Source: an uncultured delta proteobacterium
GTDB taxonomy: Bacteria > Myxococcota > UBA727 > VGSZ01
DNA length: 64,000 nucleotides
Direction of reading: 5' to 3'
Assembly (NCBI GenBank): GCA_963775425.1
Contig: CAVZJB010000016.1
Location: forward strand, 992,001-1,056,000
The notes beneath the pieces are model-generated. The model searched no databases and was not told the DNA's origin. It worked only from the letters and a program-made list of their open reading frames with translations. This document shows positions 17,253-63,121 of the stretch, in pieces; position 1 is the stretch's first letter; every line of letters starts with the position of its first letter. The translations under genes were made by a program, and so were the position numbers.

Positions 17253-17842
17253 GAGGTGCCCTCCGGCGTCAGCGGCGGCGGCGGCTCGCTCGGATCGAGG
17301 GGCGCGCCCGCGGGCGGCGCCGGTGACGACGACGGCGGTGACGACGGCGTGATGATGTCCGGCGGAGGCGCGATGATGTCCGGCGGCGGCGTGGCGGCGT
17401 CCGGCGGCGGCACCGGCGCGGGCGCGACCTTCCTGTGCAGGAGCGGGCGGCCGGGAGGCGGCGGCCCCGGGATGCGCACGACGTCGGCGCGCACGCGATA
17501 GCTGCGCGGCGTGACGATGCCGAGCGTGAGCGTGCGGAAGATGACGTCCCCGGTGGTGAGCTCGCTGTCGAGGATGACGTTGGCGACGCCGTCGCCGCCC
17601 GCCTTCTCCACCGCCCGAAGCAGCGGCCCGGCGTAGATGTCCGTGGGCGTCTGCGGCAGGAGACCGTCGAGGAAGAACACGTGCGAGACGCGCTCGTCGA
17701 CGTGGCCGACGACGACGATGTCCTCGTGCGGCGCCGCCGGCCGCCAGGTGCCCGGGATGTCGGCGCGCAACGTGTAGCAGCCCGCCGACGACGCACACGC
17801 GACCAGCGCGACGAGCGCGACGAGCGCGCGGCGGGCGGTCAC
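17249..17842 (-). CDS. Putative lipoprotein, Bor/Iss-like fold with Pro-rich tail
   Basis: Lipobox SAGC; HVFFLDGLL and LTLGIVTPRSYRV resemble Bor-type motifs. Confidence 0.65.
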   Translation of the reverse strand: MTARRALVALVALVACASSAGCYTLRADIPGTWRPAAPHEDIVVVGHVDERVSHVFFLDGLLPQTPTDIYAGPLLRAVEKAGGDGVANVILDSELTTGDVIFRTLTLGIVTPRSYRVRADVVRIPGPPPPGRPLLHRKVAPAPVPPPDAATPPPDIIAPPPDIITPSSPPSSSPAPPAGAPLDPSEPPPPLTPEGTS

Positions 17843-18414
17843 GGCGTCACCTGCGCCACGGCCGGCGGGGGCTCGCGGAGATCGTCTTTGGGGGGCTTGC
17901 TCCCCGCCGTGACAGGCGGCGCTTGCGAGGGCGGGGCCGCGGCGTCGACGGGCCCGGGGGAGAGCCTGCGCGCGTGCGCCCGGGCCGTGAAGGTGTACGA
18001 GGGCAGCGCCCAGCTCGCGAGCGGGAAGACGATGGGCACGAACGTGGCCGCCACGACGTCGAGCACCGCCTCCTGCTCGCCCACCTGCAGCTCCGTGAGC
18101 GCGCCGCTCGCGGTGAGCGCGGCCTGAAGCTCGGGCGTGGGGCTCTCGTTGTAGATGGGGATGGAGCCGACGATCCAATAGTGCCGATCCTCGACGCTGA
18201 CCTCGCCCCCTGACGCGCTCACGCCGGCGCCCTCGGCGAGCGCCTCGCTGCCCGAGCGCACCTGGCGCGGGTCCGGCTTGACGCGCGTGTTGGTGGGCAG
18301 CCCGCTCCCGTCCGTGCGCATGTCGATGACGCCAGGGAGGAACGCGCGGTGATGGAAGCAGCCGGCGGCGAGCACGCACGCGGCCACGATCGACGCCCAG
18401 CGCAGAGCCCCCAT
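17839..18414 (-). CDS. Putative lipoprotein, paralog-like to the downstream Bor-like protein
   Basis: Lipobox AAGC; RHYWIVGSIP and LPSYTFTA segments; translational coupling. Confidence 0.65.
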   Translation of the reverse strand: MGALRWASIVAACVLAAGCFHHRAFLPGVIDMRTDGSGLPTNTRVKPDPRQVRSGSEALAEGAGVSASGGEVSVEDRHYWIVGSIPIYNESPTPELQAALTASGALTELQVGEQEAVLDVVAATFVPIVFPLASWALPSYTFTARAHARRLSPGPVDAAAPPSQAPPVTAGSKPPKDDLREPPPAVAQVTP

Positions 18415-18459
18415 GGGCGGCAACGTTCCACGCCCCGAACGGGACGTCCACACGGTTCG

Positions 18460-19440
18460 CTACGCGCCTTCGTCGGCGAGCTGGCGCAAGGTGCGGGCGA
18501 GGGCGCGGGCCGCAGGCCGCAGGCCGGTGGCGCGGAAGCGGTTGCCGCTCCTGACCATGACCTCGTCGACGTGGCGGCCGTCGGGGCTCTTGAAGGCGAC
18601 CTCGAAGGTCACGCTCTTCACGCGCGCGCGGCAGCGAAACTCGGTGGCGTCCTCGGTGCGCTGGCGCCAGGGGTCAGAGACGGACTCGATGCCGTCTTCG
18701 GCGCGCAGATCCCACGCGAGGGCGCGCGCTTGCTGCGCCGCGGGCTCCACGCGGTCCTCGGTGAACGGCCCGACGTCGACGGCCGGGTCGATGGCGCGCA
18801 GGTGCGCGACGGCGTCGCGGAGCGCGGTGTCGTCGAGGACGGCGGTGGGGGAGCGCGCGAAGGCCTCGCGGGCGCCGCGATCATGGACGCGGGCCTCGAA
18901 GCCGGCCCCGCCGAGGACGACGTCGGCGCGCACCACGAACGACGGCGGCCCGCGCGCGTCGCGGCCCGCGAGGAGCACGGAGCCGGCGACGCCGAGGTCG
19001 GCGTAGACGGGGGCGCCTTTGCGGGCGGCGATGTCGGGCTCGAAGATGCCGGCGATGTCGGCGCTCCACCCGACGCGCGCGTTGTGGATGGGCCCGCGCG
19101 GCGAGAGCGTGACGGTGTACAGGCCGTCGGCGAATTCCTCGAGGAGCGGCGCGAGCCCGAGCGCGGTCTCCTCGTCGAGGAGCGGCCGCGCCGCGAGCGG
19201 CGGCACCGCGGGCAGCGCCGCGCCGCCGGGCGGCGGGAGCACGAGGCCGCCGGGCTCTTCGCCCTCGAGCACCACGAACGCCGGCGCGCCGTCGATGACG
19301 AAGGCGCCCGCATGGGTGCCGGGGACCGGGCCCGGCCCCTGCCCGAAGCGGAGCCGGCCGCTGCCGCCCTGGACCTCGACCTCGACGAGGTTGACGCCCT
19401 CGGCGCCCCTCCGCAGTCCCGTGATGCGCACGCTTGCCAC
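18460..19440 (-). CDS. Hypothetical protein
   Basis: 326-aa ORF with GC3-biased codons filling the gap; no recognised motif. Confidence 0.7.
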   Translation of the reverse strand: MASVRITGLRRGAEGVNLVEVEVQGGSGRLRFGQGPGPVPGTHAGAFVIDGAPAFVVLEGEEPGGLVLPPPGGAALPAVPPLAARPLLDEETALGLAPLLEEFADGLYTVTLSPRGPIHNARVGWSADIAGIFEPDIAARKGAPVYADLGVAGSVLLAGRDARGPPSFVVRADVVLGGAGFEARVHDRGAREAFARSPTAVLDDTALRDAVAHLRAIDPAVDVGPFTEDRVEPAAQQARALAWDLRAEDGIESVSDPWRQRTEDATEFRCRARVKSVTFEVAFKSPDGRHVDEVMVRSGNRFRATGLRPAARALARTLRQLADEGA

Positions 19441-19499
19441 CGCGGGAACTTAGCGTGCGCCGGGGGCCCCGACGAATTTCGTCGACGCGCGCATCGTGG

Positions 19500-20561
19500 C
19501 TACAGGCCGAGGCGGGCCGCGAGGGCGGCGACGTCGGCGACGTCTTTGGCGCCAGGGACGTTGTGCAGATACAGCCGCAGGTCCGCGCGTGCGTTGTCGA
19601 GGTCGCCGCGGGCGGCGCGGACGCGGGCACGGGAGAGGAGCGGGTCGGGGTCGGTGACGCCGACGAAGGAAGAGAGCACGAGCGCGCGCGAGTACGCCTC
19701 CTCGGCCAGCGCGAGGTCGCCGACGTCTTCGGCGACGCGGCCGGCGGCGAACGCGAGCGGGCGCGCGCCAGGGCTCTCGGGGTGCTCGAGGCCGAAGGCG
19801 CGGCACACCTCCACCGCCTCGCGGTCACGCTTGTGGAGCAGCTTCTGCTCGCAGCGGATGCGCATGGCCTCGGCGCTCTTGAGGCGCGCGAGATCGGCGT
19901 CGACGGCGTCGAGGGCGTCGGGGAAGCGCCGGGCCACCAGGGAGAGCGCCGCGCCGGCGCCGTCGTCGGCGGCGAGCGCCTTCACGAGCACGCGCGCAGC
20001 GCCCACGCCGTCGCCGCGCTCGACGAGGGCGTCGGCCTGCTCCCGCCACGAGCGCGCGGGCGTCGCGGCGCTGCGAGGCGCGGGCTTCACGCGCGGCGCC
20101 ACGACGGCGACCTCGGCCAGCCCGGACGGCGCCCCCGGGGAGGGGCCCACGGACGGCGTCCCCGGGGAGGGGCCCACGGACGGCGTCTCCACGGACGGCG
20201 TCCCCACGGAGGGGCCCCCCACCGACGACGCCCCCACCGACGACGCCCCCATCGACGGGGCACGCGACGGGGCCGCGACCGGCGTCACCGCCGAAGGCGC
20301 GACGGCGACGGTGCCCTCGACGCGGGAGGCGTGCGTCACCAGGCCGAACCCGCCGGCGCCGGCGAAGCCCGCGGCGAGGGCGACGAGGCCGACGCGCAGC
20401 GGCGTCCAGCGGACCCGCGATCGGGCGTCGGCGTCGAGGGCGCGCTCCAGGGAGCGCCAGGCGCGCGCCGTCGAAAACGGCGAGACCGGCTCCGGCTGCG
20501 CGGCCTCCCGGAACGCGGCGAGCGCCGCGTCGTCGGCGGGCGGGAGCGTGGGATCGCTCAC
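19500..20561 (-). CDS. Putative transmembrane anti-sigma factor with C-terminal TPR
   Basis: Coupled to the ECF sigma; one TM helix, Pro/Ser repeat linker, TPR-like helices. Confidence 0.72.
   Translation of the reverse strand: MSDPTLPPADDAALAAFREAAQPEPVSPFSTARAWRSLERALDADARSRVRWTPLRVGLVALAAGFAGAGGFGLVTHASRVEGTVAVAPSAVTPVAAPSRAPSMGASSVGASSVGGPSVGTPSVETPSVGPSPGTPSVGPSPGAPSGLAEVAVVAPRVKPAPRSAATPARSWREQADALVERGDGVGAARVLVKALAADDGAGAALSLVARRFPDALDAVDADLARLKSAEAMRIRCEQKLLHKRDREAVEVCRAFGLEHPESPGARPLAFAAGRVAEDVGDLALAEEAYSRALVLSSFVGVTDPDPLLSRARVRAARGDLDNARADLRLYLHNVPGAKDVADVAALAARLGL
20125..20260 (-). repeat. Imperfect 15-bp tandem repeats encoding (P/S)SVG(A/G/T/P)
   Basis: SSVGA-SSVGG-PSVGT-PSVET-PSVGP-SPGT-PSVGP in translation. 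Confidence 0.8.
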
Positions 20562-21235
20562 GCGTCCTCCCCCCGGGCGCTGCCGCGCCCCGCGAGCAGG
20601 TCCACGAAGCCCTTGTGACCGCGGACCCGCTGCGCCACCTCGCGGCGCGCGTGGAACAGGCGCGTCCGGACGGTGGCGTCGGGCACCTCGAGGATCTCCG
20701 CGATCTCCGTCGACGACAGCCCCTCGAGGTCCGCGAGGACAAACACCGCGCGCTTCTTGGGGGACAGCGCCTGGAGCACCTCGGAGACCGCGGCCTCACG
20801 CGCGTGCCGGGAGGCGATCTCGTCGGCGCCGAGGCCGGGCTGCTGCCACACGGGCACCGCCGCGCGATCGGCGGCGGCGTTGACGTCGCTCACGAGCAGC
20901 CGGCGCAGGCGGCGGCGGGTGGAGAAGCATGTGTGCATGGCCACCCGCGTGATCCAGGTGGTGAAGCGGCTGCGCCCCTCGAAGCGCGGCAGGCAGCGCC
21001 AGGCCTCGAGGAACGCCTGCTGCACGGCGTCATCGACCTCCACGGGGTCGGCGAGCATCCGCATGCACATGGCCTGCACGCGGCCGTGGTGCTTCTTGAA
21101 CAGGGCCCCGAAGGCGACCCGGTCGCCCTGCTGCGCCCGGCGCACCAGATCGGCGTCCTCGTCGAGGACGTCGGGAGACTTCTGGAGCGAGAGGGCGGCC
21201 TGCATGTCGTCGCCCGGTTTGGTGCCGTTGGCCAT
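20558..21235 (-). CDS. ECF RNA polymerase sigma-70 factor
   Basis: DADLVRRAQQGD, DAVQQAFL, FEGRSRFTTW, EGLSSTEIAEIL...TVRTRLFHAR. Confidence 0.95.
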   Translation of the reverse strand: MANGTKPGDDMQAALSLQKSPDVLDEDADLVRRAQQGDRVAFGALFKKHHGRVQAMCMRMLADPVEVDDAVQQAFLEAWRCLPRFEGRSRFTTWITRVAMHTCFSTRRRLRRLLVSDVNAAADRAAVPVWQQPGLGADEIASRHAREAAVSEVLQALSPKKRAVFVLADLEGLSSTEIAEILEVPDATVRTRLFHARREVAQRVRGHKGFVDLLAGRGSARGEDA

Positions 21236-36319: not shown

Positions 36320-37789
36320 ATGGGGCTGCCCCGCGTCCTCGTCGTCGACGACTCGCCCACCATCCGGCGCGTGGTGTCGAACGTGCTGCGCCAGGCAGGC
36401 TACGACGTGAGCACGGCCGAAAACGGCGACACGGGCCTCGAGGAGGCCCAGGCCACGCGGCCCGACCTCATCCTGCTCGACTTCATGATGCCGGGCATGA
36501 ACGGCTATCAGTTCGTCAAGCAGCTCGACGTCCTCGATGAAGGGCGCGCCCCCGTGGTGCTGATGTGCACGCGCACCGACCAGGTGCCCGAGGGCGCGCT
36601 CAAGGGGCTCGGCGTCGTCGACAGCATCACCAAGCCATTTTCGCCGGAGGCCATCCTCGCGGTGGTGCAGTACTGCCTCGACAAGCACGGCCGCGCGCCG
36701 CGCCAGGAGACCACGCGGGTCACCAAGCTCGCCGAGCAGAGCGCGGTCGCCGACTTCGACGAGGAGGCCACCACCCCGGGCGTCGCGCGCGCCGCCGACG
36801 GCTCGAACGACGGCGACCGCGCGCGCGCCGACCAGGCCCTGCGCGACATCGCGCGCCTGGTCGCCGACGCCCTCTTCGCCCGCGGCGTCTCCGACGCCGA
36901 CGCCGTCGCCACCGCCATCTGCGCCGACCTGCGCGCGGGCCTGCCCTCCACCAGGCTCGCCGACGTGCTGCGCGGCCCGCAGCCGAGCCTCACCGGCGAC
37001 CTCGCGGCCGTTCCCCTGCCCGAGGTGCTCCAGCTCCTGAAGTTCCAGGGGCAGACCGGCGTCCTCGAGGTGGCGCTCGACGGGCCCACGCCGGCGGGGC
37101 CGCCGGCGCGCTTCGAGGTGGCGGTGAAGGCCGGCGTCGTCGTCGCCGTGCGGGCGCGGGACGCGCGCGCCGACTTGCTGCTCGGCAACTACTTCGTCGG
37201 GGCGGCCCTGGTTTCGCGGGCGCAGCTCGACGCCGTGCTCTCGAAGTCCTCGAGCGAGCCCATCGGCATGCGCCTCGTGTCCGCCGGGCTCCTCACCACG
37301 GAGCAACTGCGGCGCTGCGTCGGCGCGCAGGCGCAGGACCTGATGGTCGAGCTGCTCCGCGCGCGCCGCGGGTTCTTCGGGCTGCGGCGCGGCGAGGACC
37401 TCCTGCCGTCCACGCACATCACGCCGGGCTTCTCCGTCGACATGCTGCTGTTCGAGGGCCTGCGCCGCATCGACGAGTGGGGCGTGATCGAAAAGCAGGT
37501 GCCGTCCTTCGACGCCAGGTTCGTGCTCGCCTCCGACGACATCCACGATCTCTCCCCCGACGAGATCGACGTGCTCTCCGTATTCAAGGACGGTGAGACG
37601 CTCGCCATCAAGGAGCTGTTGCGCATCTCGTCGCTGCGCGCGTTCGAGGCCTGCAAGGTCGTGTACCGGCTCTGCGTGCTGCGCCGCCTGCGCCGCGTCG
37701 ACGACGGCGACTCCGAGAACCTGGTGAGCGACAGCGTGGAGGGCGAGCCGGTGGCCGACGCGCCCTCCCCCGAAGGACCGGGCTCGTGA
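36320..37789 (+). CDS. Response regulator with DUF4388 domain
   Basis: VLVVDDS, PDLILLD, ITKPF; LTGDLAAVPLPEVLQLL...TGVL, LLFEGLRRIDEW. Confidence 0.9.
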   Translation: MGLPRVLVVDDSPTIRRVVSNVLRQAGYDVSTAENGDTGLEEAQATRPDLILLDFMMPGMNGYQFVKQLDVLDEGRAPVVLMCTRTDQVPEGALKGLGVVDSITKPFSPEAILAVVQYCLDKHGRAPRQETTRVTKLAEQSAVADFDEEATTPGVARAADGSNDGDRARADQALRDIARLVADALFARGVSDADAVATAICADLRAGLPSTRLADVLRGPQPSLTGDLAAVPLPEVLQLLKFQGQTGVLEVALDGPTPAGPPARFEVAVKAGVVVAVRARDARADLLLGNYFVGAALVSRAQLDAVLSKSSSEPIGMRLVSAGLLTTEQLRRCVGAQAQDLMVELLRARRGFFGLRRGEDLLPSTHITPGFSVDMLLFEGLRRIDEWGVIEKQVPSFDARFVLASDDIHDLSPDEIDVLSVFKDGETLAIKELLRISSLRAFEACKVVYRLCVLRRLRRVDDGDSENLVSDSVEGEPVADAPSPEGPGS

Positions 37790-39366
37790 CCGCGCGCGGC
37801 GCGCACCGGACGCGCGCGGGCTTCGCGCTCGGCGGCGGCGTCGCGCTCGGCGTGGTGCTCGCGGCGTTCGCGCCGGCCGCGCTGGTGGCGGCGCTCCTGT
37901 GGCCGCGCTCCCCCGCTGCATCGGCGACGTCGACGACGACGACGACGTCGTCGTCGGGGGCGAGCACGCCGGCCGCCCCGCGGATCGAGCCGCCGCGCGT
38001 GGACTTCGCCGCCATCAAGCAGGCGGCGCAGGCGCCGGCGACCCAGGCGCTCATCTACGACCGCGCGCGCGTGGACGCCGAGCGGCTGCTCCTCAAGAAG
38101 ATCGCGCGCGCGCGCGACGCCCGCCGCGCCGCCGGCGGCACGCTGCAGGACCTCAGGAAGCCCTTCTCCGTCGACGACCTCGGCGGCGCGCCGGCCATGG
38201 CGGAGCTCGGCGTGGCCGCGGGCAAGCGCCTGCTCGTGAGCCGCCCCGACGGCAAGCTCGTGGCGCCCACGGGCGCGTCCCTGCCCGCCGGCGTGGAGCT
38301 CTCGTCCAAGGAGCGCGACGAAGACACGATCGAGGCGGACGCCACGCTCGACGGAAAGCCCGTGCGCGTCCTGCGCCGCTGCGTCGCCGGCGAGCACCTG
38401 TGCCTGGTCGACATCGAGGCCCACGACGACGGTGGCCCCGCGGCCCGCGCGCGCTTCGACGCCGTCGTCGACGCGGAGCAAAGCAAGCTCGAGGCCTGGA
38501 CGCCGCCCGCGCCGCCCGCGCCGCCCGCGCTCCCGGCCGCGCCGCCGCTGCCGCTGTCGCCCGCGGCCGCCGTCGCCGCCGGCGCGGCTTTGGCGTTGCT
38601 CCTCGCCGCCGCGCTCGCGTTCCGGTTGCGCGCCGTCGGCGGCGCGGTGCTCGCGGCGGCGGCCCGGCTGCGCGCGGTGTCGGCCGGGAGCCCGCGCGAG
38701 GCGCCCGCCGCGACGCTGCCCGAAGAGATCGCCGCGCTCGAGCGCGCCGTCGACGAGGCGGCGGCCGCGCTGGGCGACGCCGGGGCGCGCGCGGCGCTCG
38801 ACAAGCGGCGGGCGGCGCGCGCGGAGGCGGTGGCCGCCGGGCTCACCGAGGCGCGCACACGGCTCGACGCCCGCGTCGCCGCCGACGACGCCGACGACGC
38901 CGCCCTCGCCGCCCTCGTGACGGCGGCGAACGCGCTGGTGGAGTCTTTCGAGGCGCGCGTGGTGCGCTGGCAGAGCCACGCCGGCGTCATCGCGGCGCCG
39001 CCCGCGATCAGCGACGTCGAGACGCGTGCGCAGGCGCTGGTCCCGCTGCCCGGGTTGATGCTCGAGGCGGCGCAGCGGCTGCTGCGGGTGGCGCGCGCGC
39101 CGGGCGTCCCCCCAAAGATCGTCGAGGAGCTCGCGTCGGTCGGGCGGGCGTTGGCGGAGCGCGGCAAGAACGCGCAGACGCTCGTCGATCAGTTGCTCCT
39201 CGACGCCGCCACCGATCGCAAGGGCGAGCGCCCGGTGGGCGCGCTCGAGGCGCTCCGCGCGGAGCTGTCCGCCCTCGCCCCTGCCCCGGCGGCGCCCACG
39301 GCCGTCGCCGCGCTGCAAGACCTGCCGCCCGCCGAGATCGCCAAGCGCTTCGAGGAGCGCCCATGA
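37786..39366 (+). CDS. Hypothetical two-TM sensor-like protein with degenerate HAMP-like segments
   Basis: TM-periplasmic-TM layout; LPEEIAALERAV and DDAALAALVTAANALV HAMP-like motifs; coupled to the response regulator. Confidence 0.6.
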   Translation: MTARGAHRTRAGFALGGGVALGVVLAAFAPAALVAALLWPRSPAASATSTTTTTSSSGASTPAAPRIEPPRVDFAAIKQAAQAPATQALIYDRARVDAERLLLKKIARARDARRAAGGTLQDLRKPFSVDDLGGAPAMAELGVAAGKRLLVSRPDGKLVAPTGASLPAGVELSSKERDEDTIEADATLDGKPVRVLRRCVAGEHLCLVDIEAHDDGGPAARARFDAVVDAEQSKLEAWTPPAPPAPPALPAAPPLPLSPAAAVAAGAALALLLAAALAFRLRAVGGAVLAAAARLRAVSAGSPREAPAATLPEEIAALERAVDEAAAALGDAGARAALDKRRAARAEAVAAGLTEARTRLDARVAADDADDAALAALVTAANALVESFEARVVRWQSHAGVIAAPPAISDVETRAQALVPLPGLMLEAAQRLLRVARAPGVPPKIVEELASVGRALAERGKNAQTLVDQLLLDAATDRKGERPVGALEALRAELSALAPAPAAPTAVAALQDLPPAEIAKRFEERP

Positions 39367-53658: not shown

Positions 53659-54366
53659 CTACTTGCGCTTGGCCTGGGCCTTCTTCTGGCCCTGGGCGCG
53701 CAGCTTGTCGACGTCCAGCCCCTTTTCGCGCATGGCCTCCTCGAGGACGGAGGCCGTGGCCTGGGCGAGCGCGCGGGCGCGGATGCCGAAGGGCTGCTCG
53801 CCCTTGGGGTCCAGGTCCACGGCGTGCTTGAGGTCCCGGAGGGCTTTTTCGATCTCGCCGTGCTGCAGGAGGATCTCGGCGCGGTTGACGTGGGACGCGA
53901 GGTCCTTGGGGTTCAGCTCGATGGCGATGGAGTACTCCTCCTGCGCCTCCTCGTGCATGCCCTTCCTGCCGTAGATGGAGCCGAGCAGCGAGTGGAAGTA
54001 CCCGTCGTACGGGTTGGAGATGACGAGCCCCTCGACGATGGTCTGGGCCTGGTCGTACTTGCCCTGCTCGAAGAGGTTGTACGCGATCTCGGCGAAGGCG
54101 TACGCGTCCTGCATGGTGAGCCCGGTGAGCTCGGCCCACGTGATCTCGCCCAGCACGAACTTGGTGAGGTTCTCGTCACTGAAGTTGGGCGTGTTGATCT
54201 CGCCCGCCTCCATCATCTGAATCACCTCGTCCTGCGAGTAGGTCGAGGGGTCGCGGCGGGGGTCGAAGATCTTCTTCTTTGCCTTGCCCTGCGCGGCCTT
54301 GCTCGTCTCGAGCTGTTTTGCGAGGGCGGAGGCCTTGGCGGATTCGTGGGTTGTCTTCGTCGCCAT
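53659..54366 (-). CDS. SycD/LcrH-like TPR type III secretion class II chaperone
   Basis: GEITWAELTGLT...YAFAEIAYNLFEQGKYDQA...EGLVISNPYD...LG followed by further TPRs. Confidence 0.8.
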   Translation of the reverse strand: MATKTTHESAKASALAKQLETSKAAQGKAKKKIFDPRRDPSTYSQDEVIQMMEAGEINTPNFSDENLTKFVLGEITWAELTGLTMQDAYAFAEIAYNLFEQGKYDQAQTIVEGLVISNPYDGYFHSLLGSIYGRKGMHEEAQEEYSIAIELNPKDLASHVNRAEILLQHGEIEKALRDLKHAVDLDPKGEQPFGIRARALAQATASVLEEAMREKGLDVDKLRAQGQKKAQAKRK

Positions 54367-54396
54367 ACGTGGACCCCAAGTAGCACGCCTGCCTGC

Positions 54397-54431
54397 CAAA
54401 AGGGAACGGCGCCGCCGAAGCAGCGCCGTTC
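54397..54431 (-). terminator. Intrinsic terminator with C(UUCG)G loop
   Basis: Minus-strand GAACGGCGCUGC-UUCG-GCGGCGCCGUUC then CCUUUU, ~18 nt after the stop of 54450..55325. Confidence 0.8.
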
Positions 54432-54449
54432 ATCCAGGACCCGGAGCGA

Positions 54450-55325
54450 TCAGCCCGCCTTGATGTGGCGGATGGCGTTCATGGCCTGGTCGTTCATCGT
54501 GTTGAGCACGTTGCTCATGGCCTGCTGCATCTGCGACAGCTTCTGGATCTCGTTCTTGATGATCTCGAACTCGATGTTGCGGCTGTCGCTGTTGCCGTCC
54601 TGCGTCGCCCCGTTCACGCCGGGAGCGACCGCGCCGGTGGCCTGGCCCGCGACGTTGCCGCCGCTGTTGCTCTGGTTGTCCTTGGCCTCGAGCTCCTTCA
54701 GGCGCTCCTCGACCTTCTCCTGCTTGTCCTTGATGACGTCGATCATGAAGGCCGCGACGATGTCCTCGAACATCGCGGGCTTCGGCAGCGACGCCAGCAT
54801 GGAGCCGGGGCCCTGGTTCGAGCGCGTCATGCCGGTCATCTGGCGCACCTTGGCGGTGTTGTTGCCGAAGGCGAGCCGCATGCCGGTGCCGGCGACGTCA
54901 TTGAGCTGCATGCCCGTGGCGCCGCCCAGGATGCCGGTGAGCAGGTTGCCGATGCCCCCCTGCATGTTGGCCAGGCCGCCCATGGCGGTGAGGCCGAGGG
55001 CCGGGCCGGCGAGGCTGGCGAGGTTGAGCCCGCCACCGGCACCGCCCGAAAGGAAGCCCTTCGGGAGGACGTTCAGTGCAGCCGTAAGACCCAGTGTTGC
55101 CACAGGGGAATTGACACCGAAGGCCTTGAGAGCGTGCCGCGCGAGGGCGCCCTTGTTGACCTTGCTCAGGTCGAAGCCGTCCTTGGTCATGCCGCGCGAC
55201 AGCTCGGCGGCGAGGCCGATCATCTCCGCCGCCTTGTCCGGCACGCCGACCATCTTCAGAGCGCCCGAGAGGATGCCCGTCTTCGAGATACCAAACGCGC
55301 CCAATGCATCGCCGAGGAAACCCAT
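54450..55325 (-). CDS. Gly-rich putative T3SS-type substrate (translocator/needle/harpin-like)
   Basis: No Cys/Trp/Tyr, no signal peptide; C-term IKNEIQKLSQMQQAMSNVLNTMNDQAMNAIRHIKAG; flanked by SycD-like chaperones; GGAG RBS. Confidence 0.7.
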   Translation of the reverse strand: MGFLGDALGAFGISKTGILSGALKMVGVPDKAAEMIGLAAELSRGMTKDGFDLSKVNKGALARHALKAFGVNSPVATLGLTAALNVLPKGFLSGGAGGGLNLASLAGPALGLTAMGGLANMQGGIGNLLTGILGGATGMQLNDVAGTGMRLAFGNNTAKVRQMTGMTRSNQGPGSMLASLPKPAMFEDIVAAFMIDVIKDKQEKVEERLKELEAKDNQSNSGGNVAGQATGAVAPGVNGATQDGNSDSRNIEFEIIKNEIQKLSQMQQAMSNVLNTMNDQAMNAIRHIKAG

Positions 55326-55544
55326 GATGTACTCCGTGTGTTGTTGTCGCGCGGAACGACCGCCGTTCCAGCGGGACCAACAGGTTATCGCAGGACGGTT
55401 ACCCAGGTTGCGGATGTCGGCGAAGGTGTGATCGGATCCGAAGTCCGTGTTTATCCTACATTTCCCGCGCTTCGGCCCGCCGCCGCGTCCGCTCGGGGTC
55501 CGGGATTTCCCCCGCCTCGACCCCGCGCGTTATTCATACGGCGG

Positions 55545-56012
55545 ATGCCCGAGCCGGTAGATCCCCAGAAGCTGCCCGCGCTCCTGCCGAAATGGGCCGC
55601 CGGCCAGATCACGTTGAAGGAGCTCAAGGGCTACTCGGACGACGAGCTCTACGCCATCGCGCACACCGGCTACTTCTTCCTGATGCAGGGGAAGAACCAC
55701 GAGGCGCGCACGCTGTTCGAGGGCCTCGTCGCCATCGACCCGCGCAACGACTACTACTACCGCGCGCTCGGCGTGATCTTTCACAAGCTCGGCGACGCCG
55801 AGCGCGCGCTCAAGCAGTTCGGCTACGCCATCCGCGTGAGCCCGCGCTCGCCGAACGCCTACGTCAACCGCGCCGAGGTCTTCATCTCGACGTCGCGCTA
55901 CCAGGAGGCCGCCGGCGACCTGCGCCGCGCCCTCGAGCACATGGGGCCCCGCGACGTCGCGCTCGCCCGCAAGGCGCGCGCGCTCCTGGGCGTCGTCACG
56001 CGGAGACGATGA
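55545..56012 (+). CDS. Second SycD/LcrH-like TPR chaperone
   Basis: GQITLKELKGYSDDELYAIAHTGYFFLMQGK..EARTLFEGLVAIDP...YRALG. Confidence 0.85.
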   Translation: MPEPVDPQKLPALLPKWAAGQITLKELKGYSDDELYAIAHTGYFFLMQGKNHEARTLFEGLVAIDPRNDYYYRALGVIFHKLGDAERALKQFGYAIRVSPRSPNAYVNRAEVFISTSRYQEAAGDLRRALEHMGPRDVALARKARALLGVVTRRR

Positions 56013-61144: not shown

Positions 61145-63121
61145 TCAGCCGCCGCAGACGGCGGCGGCGTCGACGGCGCAGTCGGTGGTGTCGACGGAGT
61201 TTCCGGTGTTGGTGAGCGCCGGCGCCGTCGACATCTGCGCCGCCAGCGCGTCGACCATGCACGCGGGGAGCTGCGGGTTCTGTTGAACCACCAGCGTGGT
61301 GGCGGAGCCGAGGTGCGCGAGCCCGTCGACGCTGGTCACGCGGGTGTTCTTGAGCGTCAGCGACGTCACCGACGCCAGACCGCACAGATCGAGGGACGTG
61401 ATGCGCGCGCCGTCGACGACGACGACGGGCGCGGTGGTGAGCGTAGGGAGCGAGAGGTCCGTGACGTCGCTGGTGCCGCCGAAGGTGTCGATGTCGAACA
61501 CGAGCTGGCCGACGTCCTCGAGGGCCGTGAGCTTGGCGAGATCGGCCTGGTCGAGCCCGGTGATGTTGAGGTTTCCGCCGACCGTGGTGAACGCGGACAG
61601 CTCGTCCTCGAGGACGGCCGGGAAGAGGAGGACGTCGCCGTCGACGGAGACGAGCTGGATCAGGCCATGGATGTCGTCGTCGTTGGGCAGGAGGAGCCCG
61701 CCGGCGCCGACGTGGGTGAGGCCGGCGAGGCTCACGCTCGTGAGCAGGTTGTTGGCGGTGATCTCGAGGCCGCCGACGTCCGTGAGCGCGTCGAGGTCGA
61801 GGCTGCCGACGTCGGTGCCGACGTAGTGGAGCGTGCCGTCCACCGTCCGGAGGCTGTGGAGGTCGAACGAGGTGACTGCGCTGTTGTCGTCGGGGACGAC
61901 GCCGACGTTCGGGTCGGTGAAGGCGTTGCCGACGATGCGGAGGTCGCCGGGCCGATAGAAGCCGCTGGCGAGCGCGTCGTCGTAGAACCGGGAGTAGAGC
62001 TGCGACTGGAAGTCGTCGACGGCGTGGATCTGCTCGAGGGCCCCGAAGTCGAGCTGGAGCTCGCTGCCGTTTTTGAGGTTGTCGTTGCTGTCGAGGAGCA
62101 GCGTCCCGGTGCCGGTGAGCACGGGGAACGAGACGCGCGTGAGGACGTCGTTGCCGAAGAGGACGACGGAGCCGCCGATGGTGGTGAGGGCGGGCAGGTT
62201 GAGCGTGGTGAGCTTGTCGGCGTCCTCGAGATCGAAGAAGCCCCCGATGGTCGCGAGCTGGTGCGCGTCGAGGGCGGCGAGGAGCGGGAGCGTGGCGGCG
62301 ACAGCGCCGTCGGCGCTCGGGAAGCTCGGATACTTGTACGTGCTCCAGGCCACGCCGCCGCCGACGTCGTGGAGCGCGGGCACGCTCAGGCTCTGCAGGA
62401 GGGCGAGGGCCTCGACGAAGAAGTCGCCGCCTACGGACGTGAGGGACTCGAGGTCGACGGCGGTGAGATCGGCGTCGCTGTCGACGATGAGGTCGCCGTC
62501 GACGACGGCGAGCTCGGGCATGTCGAGACCGGTGAGCCCGGTGACGCCGATGACATGCAGGTTGCCGTGGACCACGGCGAGCTTCATGGCGGAGACGTCG
62601 TTGAGGGAGACGCCGTCGGCGGTGACGTCGCCGTCGACCTCCTCCACGCCGGCGGCGGCGTCGACGTCGGCCTGGCTCCCGAGCGTGAGGGCCTCGCGCA
62701 GGACCTTCCTGACGTGCACGGTGACGGAGGCGTCGACGATGTCGGTGGTGGCGCCCTGGCACGCGAGCGTGACGACGACGTCGCCCGCGTCCTGGAAGCT
62801 CGCGGTGGCGGAGCCGTTCACGTCGATGGTCTGCCCGGGGAGCGCGTCGAGCCCGCAGGTGAGGGCGTTGTCGGTGCTCCAGGTGAAGGTGACCTCCTCC
62901 TCGCCGGCGTCGCGCACGGCGGCTTTGTCGACGGTGAAGGCGTCGATGGTGGGGGCCGGCGGCGCGTCGCCCGGGAGGCACGCCTTGCTCGCGCTGCAGA
63001 AGTAGCCCGACGGGCACGCGCCGTCGCACGGCAGCCCGAAGGCGGGCGCGTCGCTCGCCGGGATGGGGCAGGCCGCGAGGAGCGCGACCGGCGCGAGCGC
63101 GCCGAGCGCGCGGGCCCTCAT
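61145..63121 (-). CDS. Lipoprotein with Cys-rich and Ig-like N-terminus and receptor L-domain-like (LxxVGGxL) repeats
   Basis: Lipobox LAAC after MRARAL; repeats LTSVGGDF, LTTIGGSV, LRTVDGTL, LTDVGGLEI; NPQLPAC cap. Confidence 0.82.
   Translation of the reverse strand: MRARALGALAPVALLAACPIPASDAPAFGLPCDGACPSGYFCSASKACLPGDAPPAPTIDAFTVDKAAVRDAGEEEVTFTWSTDNALTCGLDALPGQTIDVNGSATASFQDAGDVVVTLACQGATTDIVDASVTVHVRKVLREALTLGSQADVDAAAGVEEVDGDVTADGVSLNDVSAMKLAVVHGNLHVIGVTGLTGLDMPELAVVDGDLIVDSDADLTAVDLESLTSVGGDFFVEALALLQSLSVPALHDVGGGVAWSTYKYPSFPSADGAVAATLPLLAALDAHQLATIGGFFDLEDADKLTTLNLPALTTIGGSVVLFGNDVLTRVSFPVLTGTGTLLLDSNDNLKNGSELQLDFGALEQIHAVDDFQSQLYSRFYDDALASGFYRPGDLRIVGNAFTDPNVGVVPDDNSAVTSFDLHSLRTVDGTLHYVGTDVGSLDLDALTDVGGLEITANNLLTSVSLAGLTHVGAGGLLLPNDDDIHGLIQLVSVDGDVLLFPAVLEDELSAFTTVGGNLNITGLDQADLAKLTALEDVGQLVFDIDTFGGTSDVTDLSLPTLTTAPVVVVDGARITSLDLCGLASVTSLTLKNTRVTSVDGLAHLGSATTLVVQQNPQLPACMVDALAAQMSTAPALTNTGNSVDTTDCAVDAAAVCGG

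Follow-up and report, generated by a model that had tools for sequence, protein, structure and literature searches.

What is a gene that looks like one for a type III secretion substrate, accompanied by two genes for what look like its chaperones, doing in a long stretch of DNA that encodes no secretion machine? The question is raised by a locus in the window analyzed here, that is, the whole 64-kb stretch of DNA (C16:992001-1056000) taken from the 8.26-Mb genome of an uncultured delta proteobacterium of the Myxococcota (the host genome, G000); positions given without a contig are positions in this window. Within the locus, two genes for tetratricopeptide repeat (TPR) proteins, called chapA and chapB below, lie on either side of a gene for a Gly-rich protein of 291 amino acids (aa). 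An initial annotation had taken the three for a satellite locus that feeds a substrate and SycD-like chaperones to a T3SS-like machine (T3SS, type III secretion system) encoded elsewhere. That idea is supported by the profile matches of the TPR proteins, by the presence of a suitable machine in the genome, by synteny with sctU in related genomes and by a promoter element shared with other T3SS genes. With a probability of about 0.75, we take the trio to be a substrate-chaperone module of the atypical non-flagellar T3SS of the Myxococcota (T3SS*), its substrate belonging to an undescribed family.

Organization of the Locus

The elements of the locus are as follows.

53659-54366, minus strand: chapA, 235 aa from the likely ATG at 54366 (open reading frame, ORF, listed as 53659-54399)
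54450-55325, minus strand: candidate substrate gene, 291 aa, between the two TPR genes
55385-55412, minus strand: promoter-like element CGCAAC-N16-CGATAA, with its end 59 nt upstream of the start codon of the substrate gene
55452-55465, minus-strand reading: conserved block GGAAATGTAGGATA, 80-93 nt upstream of chapB, with little or no variation across five orthologous spacers
55545-56012, plus strand: chapB, 155 aa, divergent from the other two genes

The three ORFs that had been announced for 53659..56012 are thus present, and the order in which two TPR genes flank the 291-aa gene stands; the strand had to be corrected, since chapB lies opposite to the other two and the trio is therefore not a single operon. 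A 219-bp spacer separates the divergent chapB and 291-aa genes, whereas chapA lies 50 bp downstream of the latter on the same strand, and the two probably share a transcript. Small shares turned up in only two sequencing runs; in one of them, a metatranscriptome, contigs of a close relative cover parts of chapA (53868-54102) and of the 291-aa gene (54446-54856 and 55145-55326), contigs of an RNA library being in themselves no proof of transcription.

Two SycD/LcrH-like TPR Proteins

Among the NCBIfam models, TIGR02552 (LcrH_SycD) ranks first for both TPR proteins and is matched over its full length, with 75.6 bits for chapA (E 2.9e-21, model positions 4-131 of 136) and 80.9 bits for chapB (E 6.9e-23, positions 3-133 of 136); the runner-up models reach 48 and 36 bits. 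A genome-wide scan gave 31 matches to TIGR02552, of which these two are the best and none attains the curated cut-off. The SctY model gives chapB 35 bits, 45 fewer than SycD/LcrH. A profile of the chapA family (61 homologues) aligns with Shigella IpgC at an hhalign probability of 88% (E 3e-6), and a search of PDB sequences pairs chapB residues 23-155 with PcrH 6-140, full length, at E 5.9e-9; in a single-sequence search of PDB chains PcrH, SycD and AcrH all align over their whole length.

The Pfam matches are to generic TPR models only (TPR_1, TPR_2, TPR_16 and similar), with TPR domains of ~130 aa. Together with the PcrH alignment they describe the cytoplasmic form of about three TPRs that is expected of class II chaperones, and neither protein has a hydrophobic N-terminus of the signal peptide or lipoprotein type. 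Papers given here by PMC number are cited for excerpts of their text, and in one of these TIGR02552 is the model that defines the class II chaperones, while the large subunits of class III chaperones are described as TPR-like proteins that bind the C-terminal region of the needle subunit (PMC13466201). The suggestion that the two proteins fit SycD/LcrH better than generic TPR families is upheld by an NCBIfam lead of more than 27 bits and by the chapA-IpgC alignment, but consensus TPRs score higher in the PDB search. As far as profiles can tell, chapA and chapB look like SycD/LcrH-like cytoplasmic TPR chaperones that fall below the cut-off of that family.

The 291-aa Protein and Its Family

The candidate substrate contains no Cys, Trp or Tyr and 44 Gly among its 291 residues (15% Gly), and it has no N-terminal hydrophobic signal, so that both the composition and the lack of a Sec signal had been described correctly. 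The N-terminal half, earlier called hydrophobic and Gly-rich, is indeed Gly-rich; it is only moderately hydrophobic, because the highest 19-residue Kyte-Doolittle mean is 1.28, and no segment of the protein attains transmembrane hydrophobicity. An AlphaFold2 monomer model places helices at 186-221 and 247-290 with a Gly-rich loop between them, at a mean pLDDT of 61 and of 41-65 in these regions.

We found 118 homologues, none of them named. Among public genomes the family was found only in metagenome-assembled genomes labelled Myxococcota, Myxococcales or Deltaproteobacteria, plus one Opitutaceae. Two parts of the family alignment are conserved: a stretch LPKPAxFEDIVAAFMID..KDKQ, and a C-terminal helix ending in ..QKLSQMQQAMSNVLN.MH..AM.AIR.IK. 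Within LPKP, which occupies residues 180-183, L180 never varies and P181 hardly does, but the first position of the P/VxLxxP motif is variable. A profile of the last ~118 residues retrieves 372 representatives (50% clusters) at E <= 0.001. Among the 150 best-scoring of these 372 the domain reaches the C-terminus or comes within a few residues of it, with the sole exception of P0304, and the parts preceding it are of very different length. This C-terminal domain occurs in 69 of the 401 genomes of a phylum sample, including all ten of the host's own family with 3-8 matches each; the host genome itself has six.

Other pairs of this kind occur. A SycD-like TPR gene adjoins a family member in 8 of 24 public-genome loci and, in the host genome, also on C6, where it follows the family gene, and on C8. 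A third SycD-like TPR gene follows a gene for a 418-aa DUF1521 protein at C12:241.4-243.3 kb (L016:10386-12333) and forms a further candidate chaperone-substrate pair; in literature abstracts DUF1521 is the self-cleaving domain of type III-secreted NopE1-type proteins. A subfamily of ~245 aa is regularly followed by a conserved ~425-aa protein ending in ..RGLKRPPSK (L034:6693-7973, L035:4597-5856, L018:11037-12320), and a Gly-rich protein of 131-133 aa is encoded near the ~245-aa subfamily genes; this protein and the ~425-aa one are without known family.

A Non-flagellar Export Machine Elsewhere in the Genome

The initial annotation had seen no sct or fli genes in the 64 kb, and genome-wide scans with FHIPEP, Bac_export_2, FliP, FliI/YscN and YscJ_FliF place no match there. 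The machine that it had postulated elsewhere exists: a non-flagellar set with sctR, sctS, sctT, sctQ, sctO, sctN, sctD and sctJ on C9, sctU on C16 and sctV on C4. A segment at C9:110-122 kb carries sctT, sctS, sctR, FliO-like, sctQ, HpaP-like, YscO-like, sctN and FHA/YscD-like genes, and C9:218 kb holds a second match to YscJ_FliF. Against the non-flagellar NCBIfam models SctV scores 813.6 bits (cut-off 692) and SctU 361.1 (cut-off 358), and both fall below the FlhA and FlhB cut-offs; the SctN-like (587 bits) and SctQ-like (100 bits) proteins stay just under theirs. The sctV gene (C4:94448-96469) stands alone among polysaccharide-synthesis genes beside a LexA-like gene, and sctU (C16:1085367-1086392) lies 29 kb past the end of the window, at a distance of 37 kb from the module, near a PilQ-type secretin gene that is grouped with pilP and pilO. 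In total the non-flagellar T3SS genes are spread over at least seven loci (C4; C8 at 51.7-52.8 kb; two sites on C9; C13 at 131.5 kb; C14 at 81.7 kb; C16). The host thus has core sct genes of the Myxococcota type and, with no relevant PF09392 match in its genome, no canonical needle gene. It is not a Myxococcus, and it also carries a complete flagellar locus (C9 ~326-381 kb; L011, L012) with FlhA, FlhB, FliP, FliI, FlhF/G, FliA, flagellin, FliD/S, FlgK/L/H and MotAB.

Conserved Gene Order and the Proximity of sctU

If the trio is a unit, its genes should travel together, and the proposal that they are co-conserved is confirmed: all five close orthologous loci keep chapB, the substrate gene and chapA. 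The order is retained in L024-L027 and in the partial L037, with substrate identities of 62-83%; the chaperones of these five loci, at 78-90% identity (chapA 78-83%), are more conserved than the substrate. The company of T3SS genes and of a client, as expected of a chaperone gene of this type, is found in two ways: the client is flanked in 5/5 close loci, and the T3SS genes, missing from the window, are met through the chapB orthologues that lie next to sctU.

We measured chapB-sctU distances in 38 genomes of the order, 23 of which have a chapB orthologue. The two genes are less than 700 bp apart in 9/23, lie on the same contig 35-163 kb apart in 4/23 and are on different contigs of fragmented assemblies in the remaining 10/23. 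The 2.0-Mb genome G018, of the same order, shows what a compact locus looks like. There, KamA is followed by a SycD-like gene (88 bits), a gene for a 232-aa protein, one for a substrate-like 326-aa protein and a second SycD-like gene (87 bits), and then by genes for a 156-aa protein, SctU (373 bits, above the cut-off), Rsm22, EF-P and PilQ. The host shares the outer markers of this locus, with KamA beside chapA and SctU-Rsm22-EF-P-PilQ 37 kb away; because they match those of G018, the module looks like a T3SS locus that was split by an insertion or rearrangement.

The 156-161-aa ORF between sctU and chapB is a conserved feature of the compact genomes and belongs to no known family (in the host just downstream of sctU, at C16:1084765-1085247, which is L022:8765-9247; L051:10877-11347; L043:1153-2250). 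Its product may be another exported substrate or a client of chapB. The same order contains very small genomes of 0.3-2.5 Mb (G064, G094, G104 and others of family f2), most of the larger of which keep sctU, sctV and chapB. Flagellin is encoded in none of the five small genomes that carry the substrate family together with one FHIPEP gene (four of f2, one of f4), which argues for a non-flagellar system.

Relatives of the Candidate Substrate in T3SS* Clusters

A second link to the secretion machine comes from the genomes of family f14, which was taken to be Myxococcaceae-like. In one of them (G172, 10 Mb), a weak match to the C-terminal profile falls inside a T3SS cluster (L053 = G172:C1:3655001-3675000). 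The cluster's genes encode, one after the other, a 209-aa Gly-rich protein, a 144-aa TPR protein, a 131-aa protein and a sigma factor of the FliA/WhiG family (these four at L053 10311-13173), followed by an SctI-like protein (PF17001, E 8e-4), SctJ, a FliG_C-like protein, SctL, SctN, SctO, a FliK-like protein (SctP) and SctQ. SycD/LcrH is the best model for the 144-aa TPR protein, which also matches CdsG weakly (E 2e-4). The pair of a ~190-aa protein (209 aa in G172) and a TPR protein is present in all five further complete f14 genomes that were searched, and a profile of the ~190-aa proteins aligns with the C-terminal helix of the window family at an hhalign probability of 96% (E 4e-9). The host has an orthologous pair of its own at C8:51728-52756, with a ~180-aa gene, and its SctI-like gene is on C14.

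The place of this pair recalls that of the needle genes. On Shigella pCP301 the needle gene mxiH directly precedes mxiI and mxiJ, and a Bradyrhizobium plasmid has a small ORF ahead of SctI-SctJ-SctL-SctN-SctO. Yersinia yscF-yscG is presumably arranged likewise. Judged by gene order, the 209-aa and TPR genes of G172 occupy the positions that the needle and chaperone genes have in classical operons, and we refer to the ~180-aa host gene on C8 as the sctF-position gene.

A Promoter Element Shared with Rod and sctF-Position Genes

The element CGCAAC-N16-CGATAA occurs once in the window, and none of 100 shuffles of the window yields any match. The whole 8.26 Mb has three exact sites, which precede the substrate gene, the sctF-position gene on C8 and the SctI-like gene by 35-59 nt. 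Taken together, all other spacings from 8 to 30 yield two hits, and for 40 permuted hexamer pairs the mean is 0.1 hits. When one mismatch is allowed, 18 further genome sites appear, one of them before the 161-aa ORF beside sctU. The element is invariant in the five orthologous spacers. Loci from other genomes, 344 kb in all, contain 13 hits with at most one mismatch, and 12 of these precede orthologues of the substrate gene, a paralogue, the gene in the sctU-chapB spacer or a ~190-aa gene, the last being so preceded in 5/6 loci; three low-GC loci (L050-L052) have no hit. The element is absent upstream of the host's flagellin, flgK, flgL-like, fliD and flbD/motA genes, and a sigma-70 promoter scan of the locus found no site.

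The CGATAA half coincides with the core of the -10 consensus of sigma-28, GCCGATAA (PMC12784957), so that the element looks like a promoter of the sigma-28 type. The host encodes, at C13:131458-132117, a FliA-like sigma factor that is 45% identical to the sigma factor borne by the T3SS* cluster and distinct from the flagellar FliA; the T3SS*-linked sigma, a paralogue, falls below the FliA cut-off (111 vs 189.6 bits). The C13 factor probably drives the CGCAAC-N16-CGATAA promoters. The conserved block at 55452-55465 is distinct from the substrate promoter and may be the promoter or an operator of chapB.

Weighing the Evidence

A number of observations weigh against the reading of the trio as a T3SS* module. 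Both TPR proteins miss the curated TIGR02552 cut-off of 104.8 bits, in the single-sequence PDB search PcrH and SycD rank behind designed consensus TPRs and behind long TPR proteins, and many chapB homologues are labelled TadD or PilF by JGI. Six distant orthologues of the substrate (38-43% identity, L028-L033) have no chaperone gene within the available flanks. For the 291-aa protein there is no match among Pfam and NCBIfam families (E <= 0.01), and its AlphaFold2 model, of low confidence, has no Foldseek match in the PDB at E <= 0.001, an uninformative null result. FHIPEP is found in 66/69 genomes with the C-terminal domain and also in 282/332 without it; since 348 of the 401 genomes of the sample have it (a count that takes in the unpublished G195, a genome used for no other result), the co-occurrence of family and export gene carries no information. 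The promoter motif was spotted first in these very upstream regions and the genome was scanned afterwards, so that its weight lies in the genome scan and the controls of that scan. Finally, the needle model PF09392 finds neither the 291-aa protein, nor any of 28 C-terminal domains (E <= 10), nor any family locus in the genome; hhalign comparisons of the window-family profiles A1 and A2 with MxiH, MxiI, IpaC and IpaB give probabilities below 1% (A2 with MxiH 0.1%, IpaC 0.1%); and the profile of the ~190-aa proteins, A5, reaches 5% against MxiH and 0.3% against IpaC.

By profile, then, the substrate is neither a needle (SctF) nor a translocator, and its C-terminal similarity to MxiH and IpaC is weak. 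That similarity is confined to the very end of the proteins. In hhalign the ~190-aa proteins pair end-to-end with MxiH over their final 22 residues (P 0.008), and the C-terminal ending of family members resembles the IpaC ending GNIRA. When the final 30 residues were compared by BLOSUM, anchored at the end, with shuffled targets, the observed score of the ~190-aa relatives was reached by 2/1000 shuffles for MxiH, 0/1000 for IpaC, 13/1000 for IpaB, 88/1000 for IpaD and 345/1000 for MxiI. For the window's own family the same comparison gave MxiH z 3.4 with 0/200 shuffles as high, and IpaC z 2.4 with some shuffles higher. These values hint at a type of C-terminus shared with the axial proteins, rather than at membership of one of their families. 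A lead from the ESM Atlas, in which a cluster at 0.89 has 10% PF09392 members, a needle cluster stands at 0.81 and the nearest ones are unnamed, is unsupported by the HMM tests. Against four unnamed ORFs from the T3SS cluster of the Bradyrhizobium plasmid, the C-terminal profile gives hhalign probabilities of about 1% or less.

Other explanations can be set against the same evidence, and two of them leave the T3SS* in place. The 291-aa protein could be a delivered effector or toxin, harpin-like or alpha-pore-forming, that acts at the membranes of prey or host. Its Gly-rich, Cys-free composition would suit such a role, as would the 3-8 paralogues per genome with their variable N-terminal parts and, on C12, the SycD-like TPR gene beside a gene for a DUF1521 (NopE1-type) protein, to the extent that abstracts describe that type. 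The only profile match among PDB sequences, to the alpha-pore-forming toxin XaxA over the helix and the Gly-rich hydrophobic loop, is marginal (E 0.08), not significant and a lead at most, and typical transmembrane hydrophobicity is missing. On the other side, the promoter of the gene is also that of the SctI-like rod gene and of the sctF-position gene, and the excerpts of PMC13466201 assign the class II and class III TPR chaperones to translocators and needle subunits and not to effectors; we consider this role unlikely. The division of labor between the chaperones could also be different, with chapA alone serving the 291-aa protein and chapB being an SctY-like chaperone of the 156-161-aa protein, left at its present location as a relic of rearrangement. 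chapB and its G018 orthologue do match SctY (35 and 41 bits), chapB lies 370-690 bp from sctU in 9/23 genomes with a ~157-aa ORF filling the gap in both of the gaps inspected (G018 and G113), this ORF has the promoter motif (exact in L043, one mismatch in the host), and there is a precedent in YscX:YscY, where substrate and chaperone bind the export gate as a pair (PMC9163089). On the other side stand the 45 bits by which SycD/LcrH outscores SctY for chapB, the genomes G000, G084 and G026, where chapB adjoins the substrate gene and not the 161-aa gene (sctU being ~36 kb off), and the chapB-like genes that adjoin other family members in L042 and L043. Such a split between the two chaperones strikes us as doubtful, though it deserves to be kept in mind.

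The remaining two explanations would take the locus out of the T3SS*, and they fare far worse. The complete flagellar locus of the host and the fit of CGATAA to the core of GCCGATAA (PMC12784957) would allow the 291-aa protein to be exported by the flagellar T3SS, as non-flagellar cargo or as an accessory filament, under the flagellar sigma-28. But the family and both chaperone types occur in flagellin-free genomes (flagellin in 0/5), a family member lies inside the non-flagellar cluster of G172, the neighbor of chapB in relatives scores as SctU and not as FlhB, the host's own flagellin, flgK, flgL-like, fliD and flbD/motA upstream regions lack the motif, and there is a second FliA-like sigma factor that is linked to the T3SS*; flagellar export is thus very improbable. 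It is even harder to believe in a locus with no role in secretion, made up of generic TPR scaffolds of the kind that assembles pili (TadD/PilF-like) next to an unrelated low-complexity protein. That view can draw on the generic Pfam matches and the JGI labels, on the consensus TPRs at the top of the PDB sequence search and on PilQ, PilP and PilO near sctU; it is contradicted by the wide lead of the full-length SycD/LcrH match, the absence of a hydrophobic N-terminus on either TPR protein, the position of chapB beside sctU in relatives, the promoter held in common with the SctI-like gene and the conservation of the chaperone-substrate arrangement.

A Proposed Function and Its Precedents

With the trio read as a T3SS* module, its working might be imagined as follows. 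The 291-aa protein would be made from the sigma-28-type promoter CGCAAC-N16-CGATAA, also found before the SctI-like inner-rod gene and before the ~180-aa sctF-position gene, under a sigma factor that is probably the FliA-like one of the Myxococcaceae-type T3SS* clusters, whose orthologue lies at C13:131458-132117. In the cytoplasm the TPR chaperones, chapA being probably co-transcribed and chapB historically linked to sctU, would hold the protein soluble and unpolymerized, and the contact would be made through its conserved C-terminal amphipathic helix or through the invariant LPKP stretch. The protein would then be exported through the SctRSTUV gate, and outside the cytoplasm it would most likely be a structural helical substrate (part of a filament or tip, or translocator-like) and not an enzyme.

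The closest precedents are the class II pairs SycD/LcrH-YopB/YopD, IpgC-IpaB/IpaC and PcrH-PopB/PopD, in which, as here, a small cytoplasmic protein of three TPRs is encoded beside a hydrophobic, partly disordered helical substrate. The minor translocators have a coiled coil and a C-terminal amphipathic helix (PMC3443056), and the 291-aa protein is likewise predicted to have a coiled-coil-like helix and an amphipathic helix at its end. Unlike those pairs, the locus has two chaperone genes for one substrate gene, TIGR02552 scores below the cut-off, and its P/VxLxxP-like LPKP at residues 180-183 rather than in the N-terminal region; and unlike the translocators its product has no segment of transmembrane grade, is tied to IpaB or IpaC by neither HMM nor hhalign, and is encoded 37 kb from the nearest T3SS gene. 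The class III systems YscE/YscG-YscF and PscE/PscG-PscF provide another likeness, since there a TPR-like large subunit binds the C-terminal helix of a polymerizing substrate (PMC13466201). As mxiH precedes mxiI and mxiJ in Shigella, so the 209-aa and TPR genes of G172 lie upstream of those for SctI-like, SctJ, SctL and SctN; but the family measures 180-290 aa with a long Gly-rich N-terminal part, compared with 83 aa for MxiH.

The T3SS* of Myxococcus xanthus (mxan_2434-2464) works together with the Kil Tad pilus in predation; it comprises SctD, J, I, Q, RSTUV, N and L with LcrH homologues and, in the excerpts cited, no homologue of secretin, needle, tip or translocon (PMC10433427, PMC12075869, PMC3459982). 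Systems of the Myxo group are described there as being without secretin, SctF, tip and translocon (PMC3459982), the M. xanthus system is called needleless (PMC12075869, PMC10433427), and the way in which it moves its putative protein substrates is given as an open question (PMC10433427). The clients of the M. xanthus LcrH homologues are not named in the excerpts of the literature that we covered. We found the substrate family, the promoter and the sigma link nowhere in print, a provisional statement in that the primary description of T3SS* and the supplements of the papers lie outside that coverage. The host has the same kind of machine, and the ~190-aa/TPR pair is present in f14 genomes; what sets the host apart from M. 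xanthus is that its genes are scattered (C4, C8, two sites on C9, C13, C14 and C16) instead of forming one cluster, that it has a flagellum locus too and that the substrate family has expanded to six.

The regulation has its own parallel in the late flagellar regulon of FliA (sigma-28): in both, a FliA/WhiG-family sigma factor is encoded with the export apparatus and CGATAA lies upstream of genes for (here putative) exported substrates. The two differ in the -35 element, GCAAC here and TCTAAAG at Pseudomonas aeruginosa fliC (PMC12784957), and in that the targets here are non-flagellar. The comparison has a bearing on the evolution of injectisomes from flagella, because a late-substrate regulon of the FliA type seems to have been retained. 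We would go further only tentatively, at clearly less than even odds, and propose that the needleless T3SS* may after all have extracellular parts, the Gly-rich family with its C-terminal helix being the missing axial substrates of needle, filament or translocon, each with an LcrH-like TPR protein and co-induced by a T3SS*-specific FliA-like sigma factor acting at GCAAC-N16-CGATAA. In any event, the locus and its relatives provide named candidates, namely a substrate family with a diagnostic C-terminal helix, LcrH-like chaperones, a regulon motif and a candidate sigma factor, and these can be tested in cultivable myxobacteria that carry the ~190-aa orthologue.

Other Features of the Window

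A Pfam scan of the 37 other ORFs of the window found housekeeping genes only. They include genes of sulfate assimilation, DnaK/DnaJ, CysS, kinases and peptidases, and the gene that adjoins chapA encodes a KamA-family radical-SAM enzyme. A gene for an extracytoplasmic function (ECF)-type sigma factor (20558-21232, minus strand) lies upstream of three co-directional ORFs without Pfam family (17839-21232 for the whole group). Two long ORFs with no Pfam match at E <= 1e-6, at 61145-63955 (936 aa) and 37786-39363 (526 aa), show the strong bias in GC at third codon positions (GC3) of coding sequence.

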